In this document: piece by piece, positions 5,601-64,000 of the stretch
Layout of the letters: each line of letters starts with the position of its first letter
How positions within the stretch are numbered: position 1 is the first letter of the stretch
Source of the DNA: Hydrolagus colliei
Taxonomy: Eukaryota
Length of the DNA: 64,000 bases
Direction of reading: 5' to 3'
NCBI GenBank assembly: GCA_035084275.1
Contig: CM068742.1
Location: forward strand, 79,174,001-79,238,000
Translations under genes and position numbers: made by a program
Notes under the pieces: model-generated
Seen by the model: the letters and a program-made list of their open reading frames with translations, nothing else
Told to the model about the DNA's origin: nothing
The model's database searches: none

Positions 5601-5722
5601 AAAAGCATACCCCCACCACCTTCGCACACCAATGGATGTCTCACCTTGTTAAGCACAGAATGTTGCTTTTAAAGCCTTAGCAAGCAACTTCCAGAAACAA
5701 GCACATCATTTGAGAAAGCTCA

Positions 5723-5975
5723 AAAAACAAAAGCAAAATACTACAGATGCTGGGAATCTGAAACAAAAACAAAAGTTGCTGTGGAAACTCAGCAGGTCAG
5801 GCAGTATCCATGGAGAAAGGAAAAAGAGTCAACAGAGTTCTAACGAAGGGTTGTAGACCCGAAAAGTTGACTCTTTTTCCTTTCTCCATGGATGCTGTCT
5901 GACCTGTTGAGTTTCCACAGCAACTTTTGTTTTTGTTTCAGATTCCCAGCATCTGTAGTATTTTGTGTTTTGTTT
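5723..5975. mobile_element. Palindromic Penelope-like (inverted pseudo-LTR) short element with 15-bp TSD
   Basis: Arms 5734-5833 and 5866-5965 are reverse complements (97/100). ATTTGAGAAAGCTCA is duplicated at 5708-5722 and 5976-5990. The arm sequence GATGCTG..TGACCTG.TGAGTTT...CCAGCATCTG resembles shark Penelope pLTRs. Confidence 0.8.
5834..5874 (+). ncRNA. Degenerate minimal type I hammerhead ribozyme motif
   Basis: Stem I AGAGTT/GACTCT; core CTAACGA (canonical CTGANGA); stem II GGGT-TGTAG-ACCC; GAAA; AGTT (sibling copies have GAAACGTT). Two core substitutions. Confidence 0.55.
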
Positions 5976-6741
5976 ATTTGAGAAAGCTCACTGGACTCCA
6001 CATGTACTATCTGGCATTCAAAGCTGTGACCATTCAAAGTTGTTAGAACATTGCAGGTATAGAAAAAAATATATTGCTTGAAATTGAACTTAGATTGACT
6101 TAAAAAAAACTATATTCTGAATTCAATAACAATACAATGTACATGTGTGTGGGGGTAGGGAGAATGGGGTGGGGCAGAAGAAGAGGGGAGAATGGAATAT
6201 AGAACCAGACTAATTCACAAGTGAGATGGAGGAGCTAGGATTCATTCTCCGATGCACAGATGAGATTAGGGTGATTGTCCAGATTGGTGTGAAATATCTA
6301 ATTTAACGTTTAAAATTTATTATGCTTAGTTTGACGAGTGCATCTAGAAAAATAAATGGAGGACTATGGTCGTAAGCAATCCCATGTTAATTATTAAAGC
6401 ATTAAGTATCATCACATGGAGCTTTCCTTTAAATTATAGAAATGATTGCAATTATACACCAGCCTGATATTGCACAAAATCTTGCTTATCAGGGTTATAA
6501 GTGATTGACAGTGAATTGTGTGAGAATGTAGAAGGAAGCATAAAATGCATTAGTATTTAGTAATTTGTACTTGGATTCAAACTGTTGAGGAAAATATCAT
6601 TTTCTCATTCAGAACTGAACAATAGGCAACATTTGATGCTGATATTTACTATATAACAACAAATCACATATTAATACTATTAAAAACAAAATATTTGTTT
6701 CAACCATTTACCTGTACTATAATACTAAGTGAAGCTTTCAT

Positions 6742-7925: not shown

Positions 7926-8103
7926 TTGGGGTTTAGTTTAGGGTTCATCCACAGTCACAGTCAGACAACTCAAGCGATCATTCTTCCTATGATCACTGAG
8001 TGTGTTAAATACCCAAGCTAATCATTGTCCCTAACCAAGGGATAGGTTGGTTCATTCAACACAGATTAAATCTGGGATGAAAGCTGGGAACTTTCTGGCC
8101 TGG

Positions 8104-8412
8104 ATAATAATATTAATCTTCGCATTTGATATGGAGCTTTTCACATCTTTTAGACATCTCAAAGCGCTTCACAGAATATACTGAAAAGTGAATTGACTGT
8201 ATATTTGTGGGATAAACGTGGCAGCCAATTACACACAGAAGTGTCCCACAAACAGTTGTTGATTGAAATGACCAATTTATTATTGATTTTTTGAGGGATT
8301 ATTACTAAGTGTGTGCAGTAAAGAAACTTGCCCAAGGTTTTGCCTTGCCTGGAATAGAACACAGGTCTCACCCTTGTAAGGCGAGTGCTCTAACCACTGA
8401 GCTACAGGACTC
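8104..8412 (-). mobile_element. tRNA-derived SINE, short subfamily
   Basis: Reverse complement has head GAGTCCTGTAGCTCAGTGGTTAGAGCACTCGCC, body TGTGGGACAC..GTGTGTAATTGGCTGCC and an L2-like tail with (ATT)n. Confidence 0.85.
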
Positions 8413-10400: not shown

Positions 10401-11228
10401 AAAATGTCAACACAGCTATGTGAAATGAGAAGGTTGACTACCACAAGCAGATAAATGGCTAAGCAAAGTGTGACATGTATACAGGAGAACTATTACACCA
10501 CTACTACATGTAAAATTGTAACTCCAAAGTAAAGAGTATCTCACACGATATCTCCAAAGAGCATTGTTTCAAGCAACTGAGCACAAACAATCAAATGACA
10601 TTGAATTACAGAAGGGACTTCTATATTGCACAAATACAGATAGTACAAAATCTCAAATTTATACAAAGAAACAATGCAAACACATCTATATTTGAGACCC
10701 TGGCATTTGTTTTTGCCAGAACTAGAGATGTGATCATCGAGTTCTAGATGTTCCTGGGATTGGGGAAGCGGAAGCATTGTGGGGCACGGCTGTTGTCTGA
10801 CATGATTGTTACTGTCTGTCCCCTTTCTGACCTCATCTGAGTAGAGTTCACTTAAACTGCCTCTTGTTTCTGATCTAATACGCTGCATGGTTGAGCGTGA
10901 TGCTTCAAAATGAGGTATTGCTCGTGAAGTCAACTCCTGTAAGGTTAGCAATGAGAAAAGGAATAAATAGAGGTCAAATCAGTGGTCACACAGACACCAC
11001 AAAAAAAAATGTTGCTGGTAACCATGAAGATCAATAAAGGTGACCTCACAGAAATTCATCTCTGGTTCATTAGAGGAAGGTTAGGGGAGCAGGACAGGAT
11101 ATCATCGGCTTCGTGAGCAGTAGACGTTTGTTGTACTCTGTAAGAAATAAGGGCAGCCACTTGATAAATGCGGTCAGAGGATTTCATCCATGACTTGCCG
11201 CTTAAATACATACATCAGGACGAGAGTA

Positions 11229-14300: not shown

Positions 14301-14714
14301 GATAATACATACCACAGAGCACACTGGCAGCTCAGAAAGCCTCACAATGAATGAAATCATTCTTCAAACACTGCATAACCAAACCAACACTTAAACTGGT
14401 CTTATTTGTTTGCAGCAATTAAATCTCTATACTCAGGTGAGGGCTATAAAACTGCTTAAATATCATCCTTGAAATTGTTCACAATGTCCAAAAGTACTCG
14501 ATTAATCAATTCCCTTTACCCACTGTAATCCACTTGTGCGGAATATCTACATCCTTATATATTCAACACATTAATTATCATTTTAGTTTTGATTCCGTTC
14601 CCTGCACTGTAATGACAAGGTTGCTCTTCACACTTTGTCAAGTGTCTCTGAAGAGTCCTATTTTGCACCAATATTCATTTTCCCTGAAACTCAGGAAGAA
14701 ATAATTGAAAATAC

Positions 14715-15029
14715 AATAATAATAGTAATAATAATCTTTGCATTTGATATAGCGCTTTCCACATCTTCTAGCTCTTCACAGAATATAGTGTAAAGTGATT
14801 TGACTGTATATTTGTGGACAAAATGCGACAGCCAATTGCGCTCAGCAGTGTCTTGCAAACAGTCATGGATTGAAATGACCAATTTTATTATTGTTTTTTT
14901 TTGGAGGGATTATTATTAGGCTTGTGGAGTAAGGAAACTTGCCTAAGGTTTTGCCCTGACTTGCTTGGATTCGAACACAGGTCTCATGCTTATAAGGCAA
15001 GTGTTCTAACCAATGAGCTACAGGACTCC
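14715..15029 (-). mobile_element. tRNA-derived SINE, short subfamily
   Basis: Full head GGAGTCCTGTAGCTCA..GGTTAGA, B-box GTTCGAATCC, (ATT)n tail; lacks the internal block. Confidence 0.85.
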
Positions 15030-16280
15030 ACAACAAAATCAAGTAGACGTGGACCGTGAGTGAACTGTGACTGGCAGCCAAAGGCAAGCTACAAAAAAAG
15101 TGCTCACTCACAGCAGAGTAACTAACTCCACTGATTTGAAGCCCTGCAACTTAAAGCATTGTGACAAGTCACTGATATACTCCCACAAACAAAGCCTGAC
15201 TTTGTCCAGCAGTGCACTTCAACGCAATGCAAAGTGGGACCAACAAAAGGCCAAGCGCAACAGCTGTGAAGAACAGTAAAAAAAGTAGAAACTAATAATT
15301 ATTTCACATTATTAAGAATGTTTACTAATGCAACTAATCCGATCTGCAGACATGCTGCATTTATATAGCTAAAACCAACGCACTCATCCGTCCATTGTAC
15401 TGACTGACTGACTGGCTGGCTGGCTGAACAGTGATATCTGACACCAGAGATATTTCCTTCTCAATTCCCGATTCTTAAACCCCAGCAGGACTAATTACCA
15501 TGCTGGTGCTACACTTATCGTAATTAGAGCACTGTCTGTCAGTGAAGACTGCAGTGCCAAGCCCCGGGTCAAAAATGCAATAAAGAAATAAATTATGCTT
15601 GCAGAATGCATTCAGAAACAGAATTTAGACACAGCTGGCATTAGCAAGACATTTCCTCCTGCCATTTTATCATTTACACTTCACTAAACGTTATGGAAAT
15701 GACCAATAAGTCAGCGTGAGAGCAGATATGCCCACTGAGGTAGTATTAATACTCATTTTTATACAATAACAATTGCCACAAACTAATCTTTTAGAATTTT
15801 TTGAAGGCCATTAAGATGTCTGTGTAGCCACAGGAGACGGAGAGGTCTTTGAAACAGGAATTAACCTGTGAAACAAACTTTCGCTCTGTTCCTGTCATTC
15901 AGTCATCAAAACAGGGTGCCTGCCTCATTCTTAATCTGAGCTGATGACAAGAAGATGTCTCAAAACGTTTCACATGATTTATAGTAAAGTGTAGTAACTG
16001 TAGCCAATTTGTGCACAGGTGAATTGTACATTGCAGAGGTTTGATAGCTCATTTGCTTTTCTTTTCTTAAATTGCTACACTATGGTCAGTGTCTGTTTGG
16101 GTGGCTCAGATTTCTAAGCAGCAAGTATCGCACTGCTGGTGACTGGAAAATGGTGTGCTCCCATCTGTTTAAATATCTGTGTTAATATTTTGGACACAGA
16201 CACATTGAGCATGGCAGTGATTGAATTAAAAGATGAAATATTGAAACTGTGTGGTGTTGGGATCAATGACATGTTTGGGA

Positions 16281-22555: not shown

Positions 22556-23010
22556 TTGATATTAGTTATGAGCTGTTTAAGCATTTTTAGTGCTTAGTGC
22601 TTATGTAAGCATAAAACTTGCAAACCAATCATTCAGACTGATTCTGTAAACCTCCCTGCATTTAGGGGTTAAATGTATTGTAAACTCACTAAACTCTAAT
22701 TACAGAACAAGAGATGAAGAGATTTGGAAGCATTGCCACAACTGCAGCCTTATTATTATCTGCTTTCCTAGTTGCTCAGTACCATATGTTTATGGTGCCA
22801 AACCAGCAACAAAAAGGCACTCCATGAGAAGTAATCTTATCCTTTGTTCATTCTAGAGTCCTATTGTTTAGCCTCTTTTCTTACCAAACGAAAGATGAAT
22901 ATAACCATCTTCAAGCAGCAATGATTATGACATGTTCTTTCCAGACATTTCACCTTGGAGCCAGTTCAGCTCCAAGGAGACCCACCCAACTCCCCCACCA
23001 ACGAGGATCA

Positions 23011-23262
23011 TCCTGTAGCTCAGTGGTTAAAGCACTCACCTCGCAAGCAAGAGACTTGGGTTCGATTCCCAGCAGGGCAAAATGTTGACCAAGTTTCCTT
23101 ACTCCATACGCCTCTGCTTAACTAGCAATAAGTTGGAATCCAGTTGTTAGTTGATTCGCAGATTGCTTCTCCAGGGGTAATAATTCCTTAAAAATAATCA
23201 TTTGATCATTCAATCCACAATTGTTTGTGGGACACTGCTGCAGGCAATTAGCTGGAGTGTTC
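23011..23262 (+). mobile_element. tRNA-derived SINE, long subfamily, 3' truncated
   Basis: A-box TAGCTCAGTGG and B-box GGTTCGATTCC intact. Confidence 0.8.
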
Positions 23263-31345: not shown

Positions 31346-32805
31346 TCAAGCTCGACTATGTGCACTATTTTCTTGTTACTCTTTCTACCTTGACGGTGTC
31401 CTATACTATCAAATTTAGCCTTTCACTACAGTTTTTTTAAAGCAAGTTACAAGATGCGCTTCAAAACCACTTGAATATAAGTTTAGACTGGTTAATTTGA
31501 CGTTCTGTAGCTCTTTGGCAAGACTAAAACTGGAATATTGAGTGTCTGTTGAACAGTTTACCTTCAAAAGGACATTGCATTGAAGAAAAAATGCATGTAT
31601 AAGGGAACCGAGACAATTTTGGCACTTAACATGCTAATTTGTGGGGAGAAGCTGACTCAAGGGACTTGATGTAAATTGAAGAAAGTTTGAGTGAGACATG
31701 ATTCATCTCTGAAAGATACTGAAAGGCGAGGATAAACTGAATAAAGCTGGTTGTTTAATTTAGACTAGAAATGCAGGAGTTGAGGACACAAGCACAAAAT
31801 CAATAGACTCCCATCCAAATAACTTAAAGGTATTGATCAACTCCTGTAAAAAATGAATTGGAGGAAAACATGCCTATGCCAGGTATTGTAAATGGAAGAA
31901 TAAGAACAAGTGTGGATCTTGTGCTATCTGGACAATATAAATGTCAGCTGAGAAATGACCTGAATAAATTAGATTGGAATGTGACATTGATGTTTCACCT
32001 TGCAGGGTAAGAGACAAAGAGAAATATCAATGCCTTTATCTTCTCTCCTTCCTATGAAAATGCTTGTCTTTGGGATAATGTTTGTCTTCTGAGGTTTTAA
32101 TGGAAAACTCTTAAGGGATAAACACTAACATTTCTATTTTCCCCTGAGCTTCTAAAGGTGAAACCCTTAAATATCATCGTCACATTACAATCCAATTTAT
32201 TCCAATCATTCCACAAATGTCATGTTTGTTGTTCAAATAGCACAGCGTCCACAGATGTTCCTACTCTTACACACCCAGTTCTCTACTTAGTCAAGTATTC
32301 CTCTAATTCCTTTCCTTTAGATGTCTTTGTAGGGATATTTGTATGTTTGAAATAATACTATTACCATAGAACCATAGACATCTATAGCACAGAAAGTAAG
32401 TCCACATAGCTCACCATGTCCTTCCTGGATCATGGTTTGATTAGTCGGGTGGCTGATATATGCTGAAACCCATCAGGAATGATAAATGTTGAAACCCATC
32501 ACCATGTTGAAGGATATCCAACACAGACTGGGTTCTCCATATGCAAGTCATGAAAAGATCTCTGTGCTTCGAATGGAATGCCTATCCTCTCCCCTGGAAG
32601 AATTAGCCAGTATAGTTAATTCTGGAGAGTATTAAGCATATTTGGTATTATATTTTATGCCGTATTTATAGAACTGAAAACCTCATTAGCTTTCTTCATA
32701 GCTTTGTCCACCAGCCTTCCATTGTTAAAATGTTGTGTATGTTAACCTCTATGCTGTACATATACAAAGTGAGCAGCACATTTTCTTACTTGAGAGAGGA
32801 TACTC

Positions 32806-33114
32806 TAATAATATAAATCGTCCTTGCATTTGATATAGTGCTTGTCATGTCTTCTAGACGTCTCAAAGCACTTCACAGAATATACTGTAAAGTGAATTGA
32901 CTGTATTTTTGGGGGGCAAAACACAGCAGCCAAATTGCACACAGCAGTGTCCCACAACAATCGTGGATTGAAATGACCAATTATTAATAATTTTAGCGAT
33001 TTTTGTTAGGCATGTGGAATAAGGAAAGATGCCCAAGGTTTCGCCCTGCCTGGAATCAAACCTAGGTCTCTCGTTTGCAAGGCGAGTGCTCTATCCACTG
33101 AGCTACAGGACTCC
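32806..33114 (-). mobile_element. tRNA-derived SINE, short subfamily
   Basis: Head GGAGTCCTGTAGCTCAGTGGATAGAGCACTCGCC; no internal block. Confidence 0.85.
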
Positions 33115-33299
33115 ACAAAGAGTAAGGCTAATACCAAGATGACACGGCAGAACATTGCTACAAATCAGAGATTCTAATATACACAAAAATACAAGATTAG
33201 TTCAGATGAAGAAGCCTCTTTTGCCCCATCTGATGTCAATCCCAACAGAATGCCCACTCGACTGTTCTCCCATCACAGCAACAAACAGCAATTTAAATG

Positions 33300-33518
33300 A
33301 AATGCAAAATACTGCAGATAAGAACATAAGAAATGCTAGACAAAAAAAGACCAAAGTCCATCTAGTTTACCTTCCTGGCAGTTGCATGCACATATGTCTC
33401 AGCTGCTGGAAATCTGAAACAAATGCAAAGTATGCTGGGAACACTCAGCAGGTCAGGCAGCATCTATGGAGAAAGGAAAGCGGGTCAACGTTTCGGGTTG
33501 ATGACCCTACGTCAGAAT
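33300..33518 (-). mobile_element. Penelope-like short element with hammerhead-like motif, interrupted by a ~80 bp CR1-type tail (~33320-33402)
   Basis: Minus strand reads TTCTGACGTAGGGTCATCAACCCGAAACGTTGAC...GATGCTGCCTGACCTGCTGAGTG. The element end (AAAATACTGCAGAT, 33306-33319) is separated from the rest by AAGAACATAAGAAATG.... Confidence 0.7.
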
Positions 33519-34084
33519 CACTTGTCACTCACCATGTCAAAACAGTGTGAAACAGCAATAAACAAGGCAAACAGGGCTATGTTATTAAATCAGTTCAGAT
33601 ACACAGGAAATACAGTATACCATGGCTGTATGTGAGATATCGCTGTGCACAAATGGCATTTGACTCCAAAATAGATAATTGCTACATTTTATAGTGAACT
33701 TGTCACAGATTGGGAGTGAATCCTGTCAATGGTTGGGAGAGGATGTCTCATTCTTTGATATATTCTGCCTATGTGAAAGATATTCAAATTCAAAGCTTAT
33801 TATTATTTGGCTGACTCCATGAACAAGAACAAGAAAAGGAAGCAATATATTCAAATACCTCTAGCTTGTTGAAAGTTCTCACAAATGTATCTCCAAAAGA
33901 AACCAAGCTGAAATGTCCAGGAAATTGTTTGTTTTGCGCAAAAGCTTGTTTTGCAAGCTCATTTTAGCCCCTCAGGAAACTGAAACGATGAAACACAGCC
34001 AGCAAAGGAAATGATCCACACAGCACTGAAAACAGCTGTTTGGAGCACTGAACACTGATTCACCGTGGGGAGAAATTGAATATC

Positions 34085-38189: not shown

Positions 38190-38307
38190 GAGCGAAAGAC
38201 AGAGCGAAAGACAGAGCGAAAGACAGAGCGAAAGACAGAGCGAAAGACAGAGCGAAAGACAGAGCGAAAGACAGAGCGAAAGACAGAGCGAAAGACAGAG
38301 CGAAAGA
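38190..38307 (+). repeat. Perfect 12-bp tandem repeat (GAGCGAAAGACA) x ~9.8
   Basis: Directly visible with no mismatches. Confidence 0.95.
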
Positions 38308-42105: not shown

Positions 42106-42196
42106 CTTGTGTTCACAAAAGTGGGCTCCAGATAACATTGCCTCAAGATTGGGAGATTTCTCTGTTTCAGTCGAAGATCAGTAGAGATTACGAAAG

Positions 42197-42330
42197 CAAA
42201 ACACAAAATACTAGAGATGCTGGAAATCTGAAACTAAAACAGAAGTTGCTGGGGAAACTCAACAGGTCAGGCAGCATCCATGGAGAAAGGAAAAAGAGTC
42301 AACGTTTCGGGTCTATAATTCTGTCAGAAC
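42197..42330 (-). mobile_element. Penelope-like short element (single arm) with 14-bp TSD and degenerate hammerhead
   Basis: Close match to arm 5734-5833. TSD AGAGATTACGAAAG (42183-42196) / AGAGATTAGGAAAG (42331-42344). Minus strand begins GTTCTGACAGAATTATAGACCCGAAACGTTGACTC. Confidence 0.8.
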
Positions 42331-43914
42331 AGAGATTAGGAAAGGTTTAGTTAAGGTGGACATTGAGAGATTGTTTATACTTTATTCTTTATATTGTTCA
42401 TACATTGTTCTCATGATGCATACATGAGAGAGAAGGGAATAGAGAGGGATAATAAAAGAATATGGAGGGGGTTGAGGAGAAAAAAAAATCTGCACAGTCT
42501 AGTTGGGACAAATAGCTTGTTTCTATTGTGGTCTCAGGGAATTACTGGACTCATCACTCACAATGTAAAAACATGTGTGGCAGCAAAAATCAAGCCAACC
42601 AGGAAGCCAGGCTATATAGTTAACACAGTTGAGTTCAGATCCCAAGATGTTATACTATGGCTTTATAGTGCTTAATAGTGTTCAAGCTTAAAAGTGGCAT
42701 ATTCTCTCCGTAAACAAAAGAAGATCACCTGTAAGTCACTCTTTCAACCCCAGTATTTGCTGATTTAGCAGCTCTCAATCCCCAGCATGCACTGAATTAG
42801 TTTATAACAAATTGCCAAATTTCAAACGTGTTCAGTACAAACTCTGTTTTGGCATACAATAGATTTTGCACACTGACCAAAGCTCAAAGCTCTTCAATAT
42901 CTAACAAGAACAAGTCAATGACTTCTAAGCTATTATTCACAGAACAAGATTCACAACAAAGAGAAGTAATGCTGTTGTGCATTCAAATATATGGCTACTG
43001 ATCCAACTCCCTTTTTAGATGAAGCTCGTTCATCATCATTATGTTATTCCGTGTACACAATGTGTCAGGCTGTGCAATTTGTACTTCTCCTCAATTTAGA
43101 GAATGAGCTGTCTTTGTTCACATGTCACAGAACGCTGTAGTTTAGATGTGTGATGAGAAGAATAGATTGATTATTCACCAACTAATTATTCTTGTATTTA
43201 AAGAGCCATTGTCAAGGACGAGAGCCAAAACCTAATACCCCCATTGTGAAGAGCAGCCTTTAACAACAGTGTCAAAGCTGTGATTGCATTATACAGTGGG
43301 CTCTTTAACCTTCAGATCCCTGGAAATATGCCCCAGTGAAAATTCTCAAATAGCAGGTGAAGGGCATTTGCATGTTCATCAAGCCAATAATCCACATGCT
43401 GCAGCGAATGCCAATGGCTTGGTTTCTAGAAAGCATATGGTCTCCCAACATTTTTGACTGTATAAGTTCACTTTTTTTTCACAAAATAAGCCTTTCACAG
43501 AATCTTACCGTAGCACAAAGGGAAGCAATTTAGCCCATCATGCCTATGCTGGCTCTTTAAATAGCGCCAACTAGTCCCATTCCCAATCTCTTTGCCCATA
43601 GCCAAGTAAATTCTTCATTTTTAAGTACCTACCCAATTCCATTTTAAAAGCTATTATCGAATCTGCTTCCAACAGCCTTTCAGATAGTGCATTCTCTACT
43701 TATAAAACCAAGGATCCCATACACTTTTTTAACCACTTTGTCAACTTGTCCTACCACCTTCAAAGATTTGTATATGTGAATTCCCAGGTTTCTCTGTTCC
43801 TGCACCCACTTTAAAATTGTTTGATTTATCTTATATTGCCTCTCCTCATTCTTCCTCCCAAAATGCATTACTTCATACTTGTCTGCATTATGGAGTCCTA
43901 TAACTCAGTGGTTA

Positions 43915-44860
43915 TACGATCGATGTTCTGACAGCATGTCTGTCCGACATCGAATCGTGGACGAGGGACAACGTTTTGCAATTGAACGTGAATAAGACCG
44001 AGGCCCTCCTGATTGGCTCAAGCCAGCGCCTCCGCACATCGGGCGCTGCCAGCCTCAACATCCAAGGCTGCACTCTCCACCTCACAAAGCCAATCAGGAA
44101 CCTCGGCATCATGTTCGATCAAAAACTTTCCTTCCTCCCCCACATCCGCGCCTTGACCGGCACCGCCTATTTCCATCTGCGCAACATTGCCAGGCTCCGC
44201 AACTATCTTACCCCCCGCGCTGCCGAAACACTTGTGCATGCTTACATCACCTCACGGCTGGATTACGGAAATTCTCTCCTAGTTGGCCTCCCCAGTTCCT
44301 CCATTCATAGGCTGCAGGCCATCCGAAACTCTGCAGCCCGTGTACTATCCCGCACCCGCCTCCGTGACCACATAACCCCCACCCTCGCCCATCTCCACTG
44401 GCTCCCCATCCTCCAGAGGATCGAGTTTAAGATCCTCGTCCTCACCTACAAGGCCTTACACGGCCTTGCCCCATCCTACCTAACTGATCTACTCTCCCCC
44501 TACACGCCCACCCGGACCCTCCGTTCAACAGGACTTGGCCTGCTCCAAGCTCCCCGCCCGAACCGCCCCACCATCGGAGGCCGGGCCTTCAGTTTCTCCG
44601 CTCCCACCCTATGGAATGCCATCCCTCAATCCCTCCGTTTCGCCTCTTCCCTTTCCTCTTTCAAGGCCGGTTTGAAGACTTTCCTCTTCGATTGTGCCTT
44701 TTGTTCCACCCCGAACTCTTTTACTTCCCCTTCGTGTTTCACCCCTTCCCAAACACTCCCCTCCCAGCTCGGGTCACACGCCTCTTGTTCAGCGCCTTGG
44801 GACGTCCTCCCGACGTGAAAGGCGCTCTATAAATGTAAATTGTTGTTGTTGTTGTTGTTG
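43915..44860 (+). mobile_element. Young 5'-truncated L2 LINE with open ORF2 C-terminus
   Basis: 280-aa open frame (LQLNVNKTEALLI, RNLGIMFD, ITSRLDYGNSLL, LHWLPI, GGRAFSFSAPTLWN); (TGT)n tail; TSD TGGTTA at 43909-43914 and 44859-44864. Confidence 0.92.
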
Positions 44861-47662: not shown

Positions 47663-47985
47663 TCAATCAATCAATTAAAACGTACATTTATATAGTGCCT
47701 TTCACGTCGAGAAGACGTCCCAAGGCACTGTACAGTTAGATAGGGACAAGAGCAGGTAGAGGAGGGGTCAGGATAAAGAAGATTAGGAAAATTAAATGTA
47801 TATTTGTGGGCAAAATGCGGCAGCCAATTTGCGTACAGCAGTGTCCCACAAATAGTCATGGAAGTGGGACTAAGGGGAAAAGGGGGGAAAGATGGCAAGG
47901 GGAGGGATCGGGGTAGGGGGAAGGAAAGCAGGAAAGCCTACTGTATTTTTGTGGGTGAAATGCGGCAGCCAAATTGCGCACAGCA
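47663..47985 (-). mobile_element. L2-tailed element with two tandem copies of the SINE body segment
   Basis: (TCAA)n tail and L2 stem-loop; TGTGGG..AAATGCGGCAGCCAA.TTGCG.ACAGCA occurs at ~47800-47850 and ~47940-47985. Confidence 0.7.
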
Positions 47986-50212
47986 ACAACAACAACTTAA
48001 ACTTATAAAGCGCCTTTCACATCGGGAAGACGTCCCAAGGTGCTACACAGGAGGCGTGTGACCCGAGCTGGGAGGGGAATATTCGGGAAGGGGTGAAACA
48101 CGGAGGGGAGGTCAAAAAATTCGGGGGCGGAAACAAAAGGCACGGTCAAAGAGGAAAGTCTTTAAACCGGCCTTGAAAGAGGAAAGGGAAGAAACAAGGT
48201 GGAGGGATTGGGGGATGGAATTCCACAGGATGGGAGCAGAGAAACTGAAGGCCCGGCCTCCTATGGTGGGGCGGTTCGGGCTGAGGGCTTCGAGCAGGCC
48301 AATTCCTGCTGAACGGAGGGTTCGGGTGGGCTTATAGGGGGAGAGTAAATCAGTTAAATAGGGCGGGGCAAGGCCGTGTAAGGCCTTGAAGGTTAGGACG
48401 AGGATCTTTAACTCGATCCTCTTGAGGATGGGGAGCCAGTGGAGACGGGCAAGGGTGGGGGTTATATGGTCGTGGAGGCGGGTGCGGGATAATACATGGG
48501 CTGCAGAGTTTTGGATGACCTGCAGCCTGTGAATAGAGGAGCTGGGGAGGCCGACGAGGAGAAAGTTTCCTTAGTCCAGCCGTGAGGTGATGTACGCGTG
48601 CACGAGTGTTTCGGGAGCATGCGGGGTGAGATAGTTGCGGAGCCTGGCAATGTTGCGTAGGTGGAAATAAGCGGTGCTGGTCAAGGCACGGATGTGGGGG
48701 AGGAAGGAGAGTTTATGGTCGAACGTGATTCCAAGGTTCCTGATTGGCTTTGTGAGGTGGAGCGTACAGCCTTGGAAGTTGAGGCTGGCAGCGCCCGATG
48801 TGCGGAGGTGCTGGCTTGAGCCAATCAGGAGGGCCTCGGTCTTGCTCACGTTCAATTGGAGAAAGTTGTCACTCGTCCAGGGCTCAATGTCGGACAGACA
48901 TGCTGTCAGAACATCGATGGTCTGGGGGTTGAGGGATGAGGCAGAAAGATACAGCTGGGTGTCGTCCGCATACATGTGGAAATTTGCCCCATGTTTGCGG
49001 ATGACATCGCCCAGAGGGAGCGTGTAAATGGTGAAACAGAGGGGGCCGAGGACAGAGCCCTGAGGGACGCCGTGAGAAACTGTGCGGGGGTTTGAGGAGA
49101 AACCGTTGGAAGATACAAAATGTAGGCAATGGGTCAGGTAGGAATGGAACCAGTCAAGGACTGTGCCTTTAAGGTTGAGGTGGGAGGAAGGACGTTGGAG
49201 GAGGATGGTGTGATCGACTGTGTCGAATGCAGCAGACAGGTCAAGGAGGACGAGGAGGCAGAGGGAGCCCTGGTCGCAGGCGGTTAGGATGTCGTTTGTA
49301 ACCATAACGAGGGCAGTTTCCGTGCTGTGAGCAGGGCGGAAACCTGATTGGAGGGGTTCAAGGAGTGAGTGAGGTGAGAGGAAAGAGCAGAGCTGGGAGG
49401 CAACCACTCTGTCATGGACCTTAGATAAAAACGGGAGGTTGGAGATGGGTCGGTAGCTTGATGGCTGCGACGCATCAAGGGAGGGTTTTTTCAGGATAGG
49501 GGTGATGGTGGCTGTTTTAAGGGAGGTAGGGATGGTGCTTGAGGAGAGGGAAAGGTTGATGGTGTCAGAAATGAGCGGGGCCAAAAGGTGGAGCTGGGTG
49601 TGGAGGAGTGGGGTGGTGATGGGGTCCAATGAACACGTGGTGGGTTTCATGGAGGTGATTATTTTTGTGACTGAAGACGGGGAGGTGGGGATGAAAGTAT
49701 GAAAGGGGGGGGGGTGGGTGGGGGTTGAAATAACGGATGGAGGGGCGGAGGTGGAGGAGAGGTGGGGGGAGGAAACCACAGAACGGATTCTCTCTATTTT
49801 GGACTCCAGGAAGTCCAACGTCTCCTAACAACGTTCGTTTGAAGAGAGGATCTGCGAAGCGAGACGGTGGGGGCGGAGGAACTGGTTGGTGGTGGCAAAG
49901 AGGAGGCGGTGGTTGTCCTTCGCTTCCAGGATTATCCTGGAGTAGAAGGCTAATTTGGCGGTGGCTAGGGCGGAGCGGTAAAATTTGATGCGGTCCAGCC
50001 AGATTTGCCGGTGGACCGTGAGGCCAGATTTGAGCCAGGTGCGTTCAGCTGCTCTCACTTGGCTTTTGAGGGAATGGAGGTGAGTTGTGTACCACGGTGA
50101 TGATCGGGAGTGGGAGACGGTTCTGGAGGTGAGGGGGGCCAGGGTGTCGAGGGTAGTGGAGAGGGTGTTATGGAGGGTGGTGGAGGCGGAGGATGGGTCG
50201 GTACAGGAAAAA
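47986..50212 (-). mobile_element. L2 LINE, 5' truncated, with full reverse-transcriptase domain (pseudogenized)
   Basis: ORF 48571-49818: YRPISNLPFLSK, QSGFRPAHSTETAL, LLDLSAAFDTVDH, GVPQGSVLGP, YADDTQLY. Nonsense codon at 48571-48573, frameshifts upstream, (TGT)n tail. Confidence 0.95.
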
Positions 50213-51894
50213 TGCCACAGGCATCAAATGACCAGCTACACCCTGTCTTCCTTTCGGATGAGGTACATGGTGTCGCCTTGTAGCTGAATTGGCTATGGTG
50301 ATATGCTTGGCCATGGAATGTTAGAATTGAACCCACCCTCTATGGTGGTGTCATTCAGTACTCCAGTTCCTGAGTCAAATGGATCCATAGTTTTCCAGGA
50401 CACTGCTAATGAACAGTGCAGCCAGCCTGGCTCATTAGCAGAACTTGAAAGGGCAGACCAGTCACTGGAGGTAGGGAGTCATCCCACTCAGCTCCCATTA
50501 AGACTGCAAGGACAAGCAGCTGGAAAGCTTGCCACACAGTTCTCAATGGCAAGCTGTGCGATTTTAACTGGTTATCCATGGGAATCCCAATACACACTCT
50601 GGGGTCCCCAAGCCAACCTCTACTGAATACTTTCCAGAACTAGAAAAGCAGGGTGCATCCCCCCAGAGAGAGAGTGTGCATTCCATCCAATAAACATCTC
50701 TGGAATTTTCATTTGTAGGCAAAGTGGATGGATCTCTGTTTGGATAATCTTAACGTTCCTCCCAACATGAAAGGCACTATACAAATGTAATTTGGTTGTT
50801 GTTAAGCACGGTGATAGATTTTCACATGTGTTAGGAACATGGCTAACCCCACAAAAGCATGAGACTACAGACAGTAAATATCATTAAGAGTAGGGCATAC
50901 AGTGGGCAGATATTGTGGCTTTCAAGTCGTTTAAGTGCACTTTCAATTATTGAACACTGCAAAATATAATCTGGAACCAGGAAAAAAAACTCTCCCTGCC
51001 TAAGGCTCACAAAACAGAATGGCCTCTTTCTATTCTGTGGCTTCTTTGGTTTTGCGTAAAGAAAGTAACTCAGCAACTGTAATCCAAGGGCACCTTCTGA
51101 ATTAAAAGTATTTTCAATTCTCCTGAACAGACAAAGATGAGACTTAACAGTTGTGTGAAATTCAATCTTGGGAAAAGAAAAGATCTGAAAAGGGAAGAAA
51201 CTTAGCTTTTGGAAAAATAAATCGAGCTGCTGCTCAAAAGATGGTGTTTAAGAGGAAAGAGAGAATAAAAGTATAGCTAAGTAGAAAAGAAACGAAGGCA
51301 GAATGGAAATGCAAAAAATATATATACTGATCACTAAAGAGGAAAAAATAATCTAAGATAAAAAATATATTTAGTCTCTACTTAGAATTCTATATCTCTG
51401 GAATGCTTTGAATTTCTGATGGATTATGTGACTTTGTGAGTGACTGAATTAACAGTTTGTGAATCTCCAGGGATTGTGTTCCAATCATTGCTTGGGGGTG
51501 TTAATTAAATTCAATGGAAGCTATTTGCAAGTGAAGAAAAAGTAATTCCATCCTTCGGAAATCATTTTCTCAGAAAACAGCAACAACAAAAGTGAATTTG
51601 TTTTTCTTTCATATTACATTTTTCTGCAGTGCTAAAAAAAAATCTTGTTGCCTTATGCTCATACACCTGCCCTAGTTGGATAGGTCCATTGACATTAATT
51701 CCAGGGGAACAATTGACACAGTGAAATTTCATTGAAGACATCAAATGTCACAGGTTGCTGTTTAATGTGAGGTTTTGGATAAAGTGTAGGCACAGATATA
51801 ACAATAATCCTTACAATTGGTATAATGCTTTTCAAGTTGGGAAAATGTTCCAAAGTGCTTCACAGGATGTACTATGAAGCACTTACTCCACACT

Positions 51895-52340: not shown

Positions 52341-52808
52341 TTCATCAACATATGTAAATGTATAGGTGTGGACTGAGTTATCAGCAAAGAGGCCTGGTAT
52401 GTGCTGGAATTGGTGTCAACTGCACTCAGTTGATACTCCTCTCAACTCAGATTCAGAAGGTGATGGATTCAAGCCCCACAATGAGACTTGTTCGCCTATA
52501 ATAAATACCTTGTCACAACATTTCACAGTAAATGCTGTGAAGCGCTGTGAGATGTCTTCCTGATGTGAAAGGTGCTATATCAAATGTAAGGATTATTATT
52601 AATAACAACATATCATAGACAGTGGGAAGTAATGGTCTCAGCTACCTTTGTTGAGGAGGAAGAAAAAAATCATTCAGGGATCCTGCTGCTAGGAAATGGA
52701 TGTCTGCATGGAAAGGATATTAGTGTCCTCTTGATTGTGATAATATAATAAAAGAACATACCGGCAGATTATGGAAACTTGTTAGAAAATGGTGACAATA
52801 GGAGATTT

Positions 52809-53128
52809 GCAGTCCTGAAGCTCAGTGGTTGGAGCACTTGCCTCGCAAGTGAGAGACCTTGATTTGATTCCCAGTAAGGTGAAACCTTGGGCAAGTTTCC
52901 TTACTCCACATAGCTGATAATAATCCCTCAAAAATAAAAAAATTAATAAATTGATTGCTTTAATTCACAATTGTTCATGCAAAACTGCTGTGTGCACCTT
53001 CGGCTTCTGTGTTTTGCCCACAAAGTATATGCAGTCAATTCACTTTACAGTATATTCTGTGAAGTATTTTGCGATGTGAAGAAGATGTGAAAAGCGCTAT
53101 CGCAAATGCAAGGATTGTTCTTATTATT
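52809..53128 (+). mobile_element. tRNA-derived SINE, short subfamily
   Basis: Head AGTCCTGAAGCTCAGTGGTT through the tail. Confidence 0.85.
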
Positions 53129-53224
53129 TTAATTGAAATTGTGGGAAAAATAGCAAAACCGATAGAAAAGCAATGCATTTCTTGAATACATGTAGAATAG
53201 TACAGTATTCTGAAGCAGCAGCGT

Positions 53225-53916: not shown

Positions 53917-55084
53917 TAAGGTCCGGCGATATATCGCTAAAACCCGATATAATTTTCACATCGATACACCGATATAGGCATTTCAAAAATATCGATATAC
54001 TGGAAAATCGATATATCGAGGTAAAAAATCGGAATGCATGCACACTGAACTACAAGACCCAGAATGCTCATCTCTATACACAATGCACAGACCAAGGTGC
54101 AAAGCTGCCATATTGTATTCATAGTCCTCAAATACAATATACAGGTATGCAAGGGGTGGGGGGGGAAGAGACGGCTGGGGGGAGGGTGAGGGGGAGAGAG
54201 ACGACTGGTGGGGGGGGGTGAGTGGGAGAGAGACAGCTGGGGCGTGGTGGGGGGGAGAGAGATGGGTGGGGGGAAGAGAAACGGCTGGGGGGGGGGTTGG
54301 CCAAGGGGTGGGGGGGGAAGAGACGGCTGGGGGGAGGGTGAGGGGGAGAGAGACGGCTGGGGGGTGGTGGGGGGGAGAGAGATGGGTGGGGGGAAGAGAA
54401 ACGGCTGGGGGGGGGTTGGTGGGGAGAGAGAGTCGGCGGTGGTGTGTGTGGGGGGGAGAGAGAAACGGCGGGGGGGGAGGGGCAAATAAATGGCTGGGGG
54501 GTGGTGGTGGGGGGAGAGAGAGACGGCGGTGGGGGAGGGGGAAAGAGACGGCTGGGGGGCGAGAGAGACGGCGGGGGGGGGGGGAAGGAGAGGGAGATGG
54601 CTGTGGGGGAGGGGGAAAGAGATGGCTGGGGGGCGAGAGAGACGGCGGGGGGGGGGGAAGGAGAGGGAGATGGCTGTGGGGGAGGGGGAAAGAGACGGCT
54701 GGGGGGCGAGAGAGACGGCGGGGGGGGGGAAGGAGAGGGAGATGGCTGTGGGGGGTGTGGAGGGAGAGGGACAGTGGGGGGGAGGGGTGGGGGGGAGAGA
54801 CGGGGTGGATGTGATAATATACAGATAGATAGAGATGGGAGGGATGTGAGAGAGACACAGAGACACCGACAGACAAACACAGAGATGGAGAGAGTGAGAG
54901 ACACAGAGAAATAAAGATATTTACCTCCCGAGGAGATAGGCCCCGAATGCGCACGCACCCCGAATGCGTGCGCAGCGCGTGCATGCGCAGTACAAAAACC
55001 CCGGAAATATCGATATTTCGGTATATCTCGATATGAGCCCGTTGATATATCTAAATCAGAACATTTCCATATCGACGGACCCTA
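53917..55084. mobile_element. Non-autonomous hAT (Ac-like) element with G-rich minisatellite interior
   Basis: TIRs TAAGGTCCGGCGATAT / ATATCGACGGACCCTA (14/16); 8-bp TSD CTATTAAT (53909-53916) / CTATTATT (55085-55092); subterminal CGATAT/ATATCG repeats. Confidence 0.88.
54152..54808 (+). repeat. G-rich compound minisatellite (GAGACGGCTGGGGGG-based)
   Basis: Repeated GAGAGACGGC(T)G(n) units with runs of 5-12 G, arranged in higher-order blocks. Confidence 0.9.
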
Positions 55085-57110: not shown

Positions 57111-57487
57111 TACTGCAGCTCCGTGGTTAGAGCACTCGCCTCATAAGCGACAGATCTGGGTTTGATTCCCAACAGGGCAAAATGTTGGGCAAGTTTCCTT
57201 ACTCCACAACCCTCTGTTTACTTAGCAGTAAGTGCAATACGTAACAAATATGTTAGTCGATTGGCTGATCGCTTTTCTGGGGTAATAATTCTTTCAAAAA
57301 GTGACAATAATTAATTGGTCATTTCCATCCACGACTGTTTCTGGAACACTGTTGTGCGCAATTGACTGCTGTATGTCACCCACAAAATATACATTCAATT
57401 CACTCTGCTATTTGTTCTGTGAAGTGCTTTGAGACGAGTCAATGATGTGATATGGTGCTATATCAAATGCAAAGATTATTATTATTA
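57111..57487 (+). mobile_element. tRNA-derived SINE, long subfamily
   Basis: Full-length copy with internal block and (ATT)n tail. Confidence 0.85.
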
Positions 57488-62981: not shown

Positions 62982-64000
62982 AAGTTGGTAAGGAGGCAGA
63001 GGGCATGGGTGATGTACTGAATGAGTACTTTGTCGCTGTCTTCACAAGAGAAGAGGATGCAGCCAATGCTACAGTATTGAAGGAGAGGGTAGAAGAAATG
63101 GATAGGATTAGTAATAAATAGAGCGGAAATACTAAAAAGGTTGACGGCGCTCAAGGTAGATAAGTCACCCAGTCCCGATGGGATGCATTCTAGGTTACTA
63201 AGGGAAGTGTGGGAGCAAATAGCAGAGACTCTGGCCACAATCTTTCAATCTTCCTTGGACACAGGAGTGGTGCCAGAGGACTGGAAGGTTGCTAATGTTA
63301 CTCCTCTGTATAAAAAGGGGCAGAAGGACGAACCTGGGAACTACAGGCCAGTCAGTCTTACGTCAGTAGTGGGCAAACTTCTAGATCTTCACTTAGAAAG
63401 ATATAGGCTAATAAAGGACAGCCAGCATAGATTTGTTAAAGGCAAATCTTGCCTTACAAATCTAATAGAATTTTTCGATGAGGTAACGGAATGGGTGGAC
63501 GAGGGCAGCGCAGTTGATGCAGTTTACATGGATTTTCAAAAGACATTTGACAAAGTGCCACATGAGAGGCTTAGTAGGAAAGTAGCGGCCCACGCCGTTA
63601 AAGGAACAGTGGCAGCATGGATCCACAACTGGCTGTAAGACAGAAAGCAGAGAGTTGTGGTGAGCAGCTGTTTTTCAGATTAGAGGGAAGTGTGCAGTGA
63701 TCACACCCACTTTTTGGGACCACTATTCTTCCGAATATATATTAATGATCTGGACTTGGGTATAGGGAGCACAGTTTCCAAGTTTGCAGATGATACTAAG
63801 TTAGGAAGAAGAGTAAATAGTGAGGAGGATAGTAACCATCTACAAGAAGATTTAGATAAAATGGTAAAGTGGGCAGACACATGGCAGATGAAGTTTAATG
63901 CAGAGAAGTGTGAGGTGTTACGTTTTGGGAGAAGAAATGAGGGGAGGCAATATAGGCTAGATGGTACCATTTTAAGGGGTGTGAGGGGACAGAGAGCCTG
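62982..64000 (+). mobile_element. CR1 LINE ORF2 reverse-transcriptase region (decayed, runs off the window)
   Basis: LNEYFVAVFT, KSPSPDGMH, PEDWKVANVTPLYKKG, NYRPVSLTSVVGK, SCLTNLIEFF, VYMDFQKTFDKVPH, FADDTKLG; in-frame stops and deletions. Confidence 0.93.

Follow-up and report, generated by a model that had tools for sequence, protein, structure and literature searches.

The 134-bp unit that we call copy A is, in our judgement, probably a solo pseudo-LTR (pLTR) of a cartilaginous-fish Penelope-like element (PLE), and the parent element probably belongs to the Neptune clade. This explanation is better supported than one in which the unit arises by way of ribozyme-processed or circular RNA. 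As a solo pLTR the unit would be ordinary, and its curious feature is a boundary that falls at the start of the ribozyme fold rather than at the cut. All copies described below lie in the window, by which we mean the whole 64-kb stretch of DNA that was analysed, and published systems are cited from excerpts of the respective papers.

Copies of the unit and their ends

Copy A occupies 42197..42330 on the minus strand (5´ end 42330, 3´ end 42197) and is a real short mobile-DNA insertion. It is flanked by a 14-bp TSD with one mismatch, AGAGATTACGAAAG at 42183..42196 on the left and AGAGATTAGGAAAG at 42331..42344 on the right; when ~20,000 random position pairs were compared, four matched as well as the pair found within 5 nt of both ends of the copy. 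On the minus strand the copy starts with GTTCTGAC, at a hammerhead-like motif, and ends in TTTTGTGTTTTG, which is T-rich and without poly(A). The unit, its TSD, its start at the motif and its end sequence had all been described in a sequence-only reading of this DNA, and each was confirmed.

Searches of the 64-kb window with blastn and nhmmer recovered a family of four arms (A, B, C and D) at three loci, 529 bp in total, and no further convincing copy. Three loci in 64 kb would imply many copies genome-wide, if the window is typical. Over the parts aligned by blastn, identity to copy A is 93% for arm B, 93% for arm C and 87% for copy D, and 3´ of the hammerhead the identity is 92-96% among A, B and C, and 82-85% between D and these three. 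Arm B (142 bp, 5834..5975, plus strand), which starts at the base of helix I, and the inverted arm C (5723..5833, minus strand), which starts 3 nt before the predicted cut and is 32 nt shorter, form a head-to-head pair at 5723-5975. Of their aligned bases, 105 of 109 are identical, and the whole pair is bounded by a perfect 15-bp TSD (5708..5722 and 5976..5990). The miRNA-like Rfam matches at 5737-5962 were discarded, as they merely reflect this inverted repeat.

Copy D (~33293..33518, minus strand, left end approximate) is more divergent and has the 5´ start seen in A and B. It was later split by an 80-bp insertion (33320..33399, with a 5-bp near-duplication at 33315-33319 and 33400-33404), which we take to resemble the 3´ end of a LINE. 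Because copy D and gene models of Callorhinchus milii have residues in common that are absent from A, B and C, D is likely a separate subfamily. No TSD abuts it. A 10-bp direct repeat (33283-33292 and 33550-33559; 12 of 3000 random positions reach 10 bp) was considered as the TSD of copy D and rejected, since 33520-33635 aligns to ~42549-42680 straight across that repeat (E 5.5e-7, a match seen in none of ~3000 random segments); it would also have moved the 5´ end of D 31 nt upstream, against the common start. These two aligned segments are decayed copies of another, older repeat, one abutting the 5´ end of D and the other ~200 bp from copy A, that presumably reads as a CR1 LINE RT. The right copy of the 10-bp repeat lies 31 nt inside the older repeat, and the pair is neither a clean TSD nor clearly a product of chance. 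The 31 nt upstream of D were likewise rejected as a unit 3´ end, the arrangement sought in a test for a circle: they gave no match, and between 561 and 1312 of 5000 random segments scored equally.

The base that directly follows the predicted cut is 42300 for copy A, 5869 for arm B, 5830 for arm C and 33486 for copy D. Counted from this cut, the 5´ ends lie at -30 in A, or -32 in the register of B after a 2-nt deletion, at -35 in B, at ~-32 in D and at -3 in C. The 3´ ends fall at +104, +107, +108 and ~+109 and are T-rich, without poly(A). None of the four arms goes past ~+110 into the 30-40 bp tail that is an optional feature of PLEs. The common start falls at the base of helix I and not at the cut site; three of the four arms, from two subfamilies, end there, and the fourth ends next to the cut site.

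That the relatives at 5834 and 33518 share their 5´ start with copy A had been noted from the letters alone, and both do begin within 3 nt of it, although the ends of B and D lack a TSD of their own and arm C starts at -3. Plain random truncation is therefore unlikely, as had also been argued. When uniform truncation was simulated over 100-1000 nt, the chance that three ends would fall within 4 nt was 0.004 to 0.00005, in a post hoc comparison with n=3 from which arm C was left out. Ordinary random 5´ truncation of PLE insertions would make the common start a small-sample coincidence, aided by how the ends of B and D are defined: only in A is the 5´ end set by its own TSD, that of B being an inversion junction and that of D the point where homology stops against the older repeat, with no abutting TSD. 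Arm C does start elsewhere, and PLEs are described as generally heavily 5´-truncated (PMC8557442 and PMC8969392, excerpts). We nevertheless find this explanation improbable, as the simulated probability is at most 0.004 and the start is found right at the base of helix I. That two subfamilies have this start in common is more readily explained by a structural landmark than by a single master copy. Such a landmark is already known at the 5´ end of helix I, for an intron of Drosophila virilis ends there (PMC4209133, as excerpted).

Elsewhere in the window, repeats with tRNA heads are plentiful, and there are two LINE fragments that code for RT. Among the repeats is an abundant SINE family with a tRNA head, whose members are ~310-370 bp long and have both an A and a B box and a tail of ATT repeats (8100-8412, 14711-15033, 23009-23260, 32800-33115, 52808-53135, 57113-57487 and others), five heads of which pass the Rfam tRNA threshold. 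An inverted LINE pair (43916-44855 and 47980-48921, 88% over ~940 bp) is presumably L2; in the LINE copy at 48112-50223 stops interrupt the RT domain (E 1e-32), and a further RT fragment at 63093-64000 (E 1e-11), which we take to be CR1-like, runs off the window end. An open frame of 131 codons at 10544-10936 on the minus strand lies behind a splice-acceptor-like site and is possibly an exon; its best domain match is a weak one to Wntless (E 0.076), and an Atlas search gave no match. There is also a perfect 12-bp tandem array of 9.8 copies at 38190-38307, and a G-rich minisatellite with periods of 73 and 120 bp at 54150-54784.

The hammerhead motif and the RNA template

A type-I hammerhead is cut 3´ of its core. 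In sense orientation, the head of the unit fits the published consensus for the minimal type-I hammerhead of metazoan PLEs, which consists of a short helix I, CUGANGAH, helix II, GAAA, a 2-nt palindrome, UH and helix I (PMC4209133, consensus as excerpted). The motif contains GAAA-CG-UU and no loop 3; it is minimal, not canonical with a capped helix III. A descriptor built from the PLE consensus, with up to two mismatches allowed, matched arm B alone in the 64 kb and nothing in six shuffles; copy A fails it even with two mismatches, and A and D match through homology only. With Rfam, no hammerhead match to the unit appeared at the gathering score, nor when E values up to 10 were admitted.

The core is damaged in every copy. 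It is best preserved in arm B (5834..5874, plus strand), which carries G5>A and C15.2>A, while copy D carries A9>U; the positions are given in hammerhead core numbering. The motif of copy A (42295..42330, minus strand, predicted cut between 42301 and 42300) is the most damaged, with a 2-nt deletion at G8/A9 and disrupted pairing in helix II. Just beyond the predicted cut there is a pyrimidine tract in A (42279-42295, minus strand) and in D (33462-33480, minus strand); in D it ends in TAG followed by ATG, and so resembles a 3´ splice site ahead of a short open frame. Introns are reported to be frequent in PLE pLTRs (PMC2377424, excerpt).

The sequence-only reading had gone further and proposed a retrozyme-like family, possibly mobilised through ribozyme-processed or circular RNA; neither proposal found support. 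Metazoan retrozymes are described as 150-450 bp tandem repeats with canonical type-I ribozymes and highly self-paired circles (PMC7229834, excerpt). The unit does agree with that description in its type-I hammerhead, its lack of coding capacity, its low GC and its TSDs >4 bp, and retrozymes are reported in one chondrichthyan (Li et al., bioRxiv 10.64898/2026.07.22.740005, excerpt). Long TSDs and low GC do not discriminate, however, since PLE insertions have them too. The unit is shorter than 150-450 bp, though within the 51-972 bp range of Li et al., who, in the part cited, require two consecutive units and accept minimal motifs if these are in tandem. Here the hammerhead is minimal, and the 64-kb window holds neither a head-to-tail junction nor a tandem array of the unit. 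When folded as circles, the decayed copies A and B are no more stable than 200 shuffles each (z +0.32 and -0.32, respectively).

The ends bear on the same question. A monomer running from cut site to cut site is not what we see, as in three of the four arms the start precedes the predicted cut by 30-35 nt (32-35 nt in the register of B), which makes a cleaved linear RNA impossible as the template for A, B and D. These upstream starts do not speak against a circle, which would yield the observed permutation if it were copied a single time from a fixed start, and arm C does begin 3 nt from the cut site. Head-to-head inversion is, on the other side, a PLE trait. All considered, we regard a true non-LTR retrozyme, with a tandem precursor, ribozyme cleavage, circular RNA and rolling-circle cDNA, as very improbable.

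Matches to a Pol III A box were absent from three copies of the unit at two mismatches, and a B box was likewise not found, whereas both boxes were present in two of two SINEs from the window that served as a positive control. The box consensus is printed in PMC8969392 (excerpt). A sigma-70 promoter scan came out empty, and is irrelevant to a eukaryote.

This result bears on a third alternative, namely that a pLTR gave rise to a monomeric non-autonomous family, with units of ~135-142 nt, that propagates itself and is copied from its own or read-through linear RNA by a PLE protein acting in trans. The unit would then be an independent retroposon without a Pol III promoter, mobilised from uncleaved RNA by a Neptune-like PLE protein, with the hammerhead fold serving as a 5´ boundary, not a catalyst, and perhaps also as a protein-binding or template-switch site. 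All three loci are of unit length and none extends upstream, which speaks against a solo pLTR insofar as a dedicated non-autonomous family would give the same picture. No ORF-bearing copy lies in the window, the ends are tight on both sides, and two of the three loci have TSDs of their own. There are also precedents, non-autonomous PLE derivatives in Chlamydomonas (PMC8557442, excerpt) and pLTR-derived retrozyme monomers in Xenopus (bioRxiv 10.64898/2026.07.22.740005, excerpt). Against these points, the Pol III boxes carried by both control SINEs are missing, the same boundary occurs in two subfamilies, and, if the anole PLE is a guide, the unit would lack downstream RNA that the PLE protein needs. 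A sample of three loci is moreover compatible with a large fraction of longer copies. We therefore hold this alternative to be possible and on balance unlikely.

Protein relatives and the Penelope link

The proposed connection to Penelope elements stood up, and is supported by the minimal PLE hammerhead, the inverted-arm layout and an RT junction in one protein, P0012. Antisense translations of the unit match 12 proteins, 11 of which were kept and one of which was spurious. The first protein search returned three proteins from 1159 candidates, two of them C. milii gene models, which makes a cartilaginous fish the probable source of the DNA. The one protein dropped is P0004, the best match of one search but a repeat-driven false one. 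P0001 and P0003, C. milii UniRef models for an Ig-domain protein and golgin A1, carry antisense pieces of the repeat, probably as annotation errors.

An antisense arm followed by a sense arm, the order of the B/C pair, occurs in three of the 11 related proteins (matched in 0, 0 and 14 of 1000 shuffles), and the opposite order in one. In P0012 the antisense arm is spliced to a PLE RT motif that is identical at 22 of 30 positions to a protein with RT and GIY-YIG. This motif retrieves 15 proteins of 26 candidates, including five named from sharks, rays and skates, and a linker CxxxxCxxC is found in six of the 15; such a cysteine motif in the linker marks Neptune elements (PMC8557442, excerpt). 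The terminal 7 residues of P0018, a Mobula PLE gene model, match the sense hammerhead, a weak match that 16 of 1000 shuffles equalled.

A PLE ORF was not detected in the window by tblastn with the 15 PLE-like proteins (best E 0.14), and when the sense reading frame served as query it yielded no relatives, none of 1394 candidates being a PLE protein with its start in the unit. From an ATG at +23 this frame stays open up to the 3´ end, a length short enough to be due to chance. DNA relatives were absent from bacterial and archaeal genomes (two patterns), plasmids and phages. The link to a full-length PLE parent is thus indirect, and is suggested by the motif, the layout, one spliced gene model and the 7-residue match in P0018. 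Our literature search found no paper on this repeat family in cartilaginous fish; Repbase, Dfam, Lunse et al. (2017) and the bioRxiv supplements lay outside that search and may hold it.

A model of insertion and comparison with known systems

The model that we propose for a solo pLTR takes the boundaries, TSDs, motif and inversion as observed, and supplies by inference which enzyme acted, on which template, and why synthesis stopped. By analogy with the anole PLE, a PLE RT/GIY-YIG protein would bind the PLE transcript and nick the target DNA, and its RT would prime internally at a fixed point 3´ of the hammerhead, giving the common 3´ ends at +104 to +109. Synthesis would then pass the cut site and end at the base of helix I, where the sequences do end (-32 to -35), and because it runs through the cut site its template would be uncleaved. 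The helix I landmark could be the 5´ end of the transcript, or a point at the ribozyme fold where synthesis stops or switches strands. As the initiation site would lie near the 5´ end of a transcript comprising pLTR and ORF, a short cDNA with a fixed end would result. Staggered nicks would account for the 14-15 bp TSDs that are seen, and if both nicked strands were extended, two cDNAs might be joined head to head near the hammerhead, giving the pair at 5723-5975. Autonomous transcripts would give rise to the short copies as by-products, and these copies probably do not move again. Snap-back priming of a simple kind at helix I was rejected as a source of the pair, since, by inspection, the B/C junction retains both helix-I arms.

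The anole element (Poseidon PAc of Anolis carolinensis) is the source of these mechanistic analogies; the likely partner here is Neptune-like, whereas the anole data come from a Poseidon element. In PAc the ORF begins at helix II, RT initiates 111-118 nt inside it, and the cut lies 26 nt past the start codon (PMC11167929, excerpt, as for the other PAc data), which by arithmetic puts the RT start 85-92 nt beyond the cut. Nicking and extension affect both strands of the target, the reaction does not depend on cleavage in vitro, and the shortest usable RNA has to include the first 172 nt of the ORF, a stretch that reaches past the RT start site. By analogy the unit may likewise have a fixed 3´ end ~100 nt past the cut and an uncleaved RNA template, and extension of both strands would account for the inverted pair. 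PAc belongs to a different sequence family, however, and the unit has no ATG at helix II and, in its four arms, no 30-40 bp tail.

If the helix-I boundary holds genome-wide, it would allow a direct test of the way in which PLE cDNA terminates and inverted pLTRs arise. Should the unit prove to be an independent retroposon, it would stand midway between a solo pLTR and a retrozyme, and would point to a non-catalytic role for PLE hammerheads that also explains where inverted arms join.

Published solo and truncated pLTRs are the closest comparison (PMC4209133, PMC3846280 and PMC8557442, excerpts). The unit resembles them in carrying a minimal type-I hammerhead whose helix III is a 2-nt palindrome, in occurring as single dispersed copies, and in its inverted shorter 5´ arm, TSDs and lack of poly(A). 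Most minimal hammerheads are reported as single copies, thousands per genome and probably related to truncated PLEs, with some forming opposite-strand pairs 100-700 bp apart (PMC4209133, excerpt), and most PLE insertions are said to keep a single terminal repeat (bioRxiv 10.64898/2026.07.22.740005, excerpt). An inverted, shorter 5´ arm inside the TSD is the typical PLE layout (PMC8557442 and PMC3846280, excerpts), and an inverted 5´-truncated arm adjoining the 5´ end, with a TSD around the whole pair, is what we find at 5723-5975. In Pen2a of Adineta the inverted pLTR is 37 bp shorter (PMC3846280, excerpt), compared with 32 nt for arm C relative to B, while the TSDs are 14-15 bp here and 8-10 bp in Adineta. 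In full-length PLEs the pLTR flanks an RT + GIY-YIG ORF; in the window we see short units alone, and the 5´ end at the base of helix I that we observe is unstated in the excerpts of these three papers.

Metazoan retrozymes are like the unit in being non-coding and PLE-related, with a type-I hammerhead, low GC and long TSDs, but in the descriptions cited they have head-to-tail units, mostly canonical ribozymes and highly self-paired circles (PMC7229834 and bioRxiv 10.64898/2026.07.22.740005, excerpts), none of which is seen here. Set beside these systems, the unit is most likely a solo pLTR with a decayed minimal hammerhead, a known type of insertion and not a new circular-RNA element.
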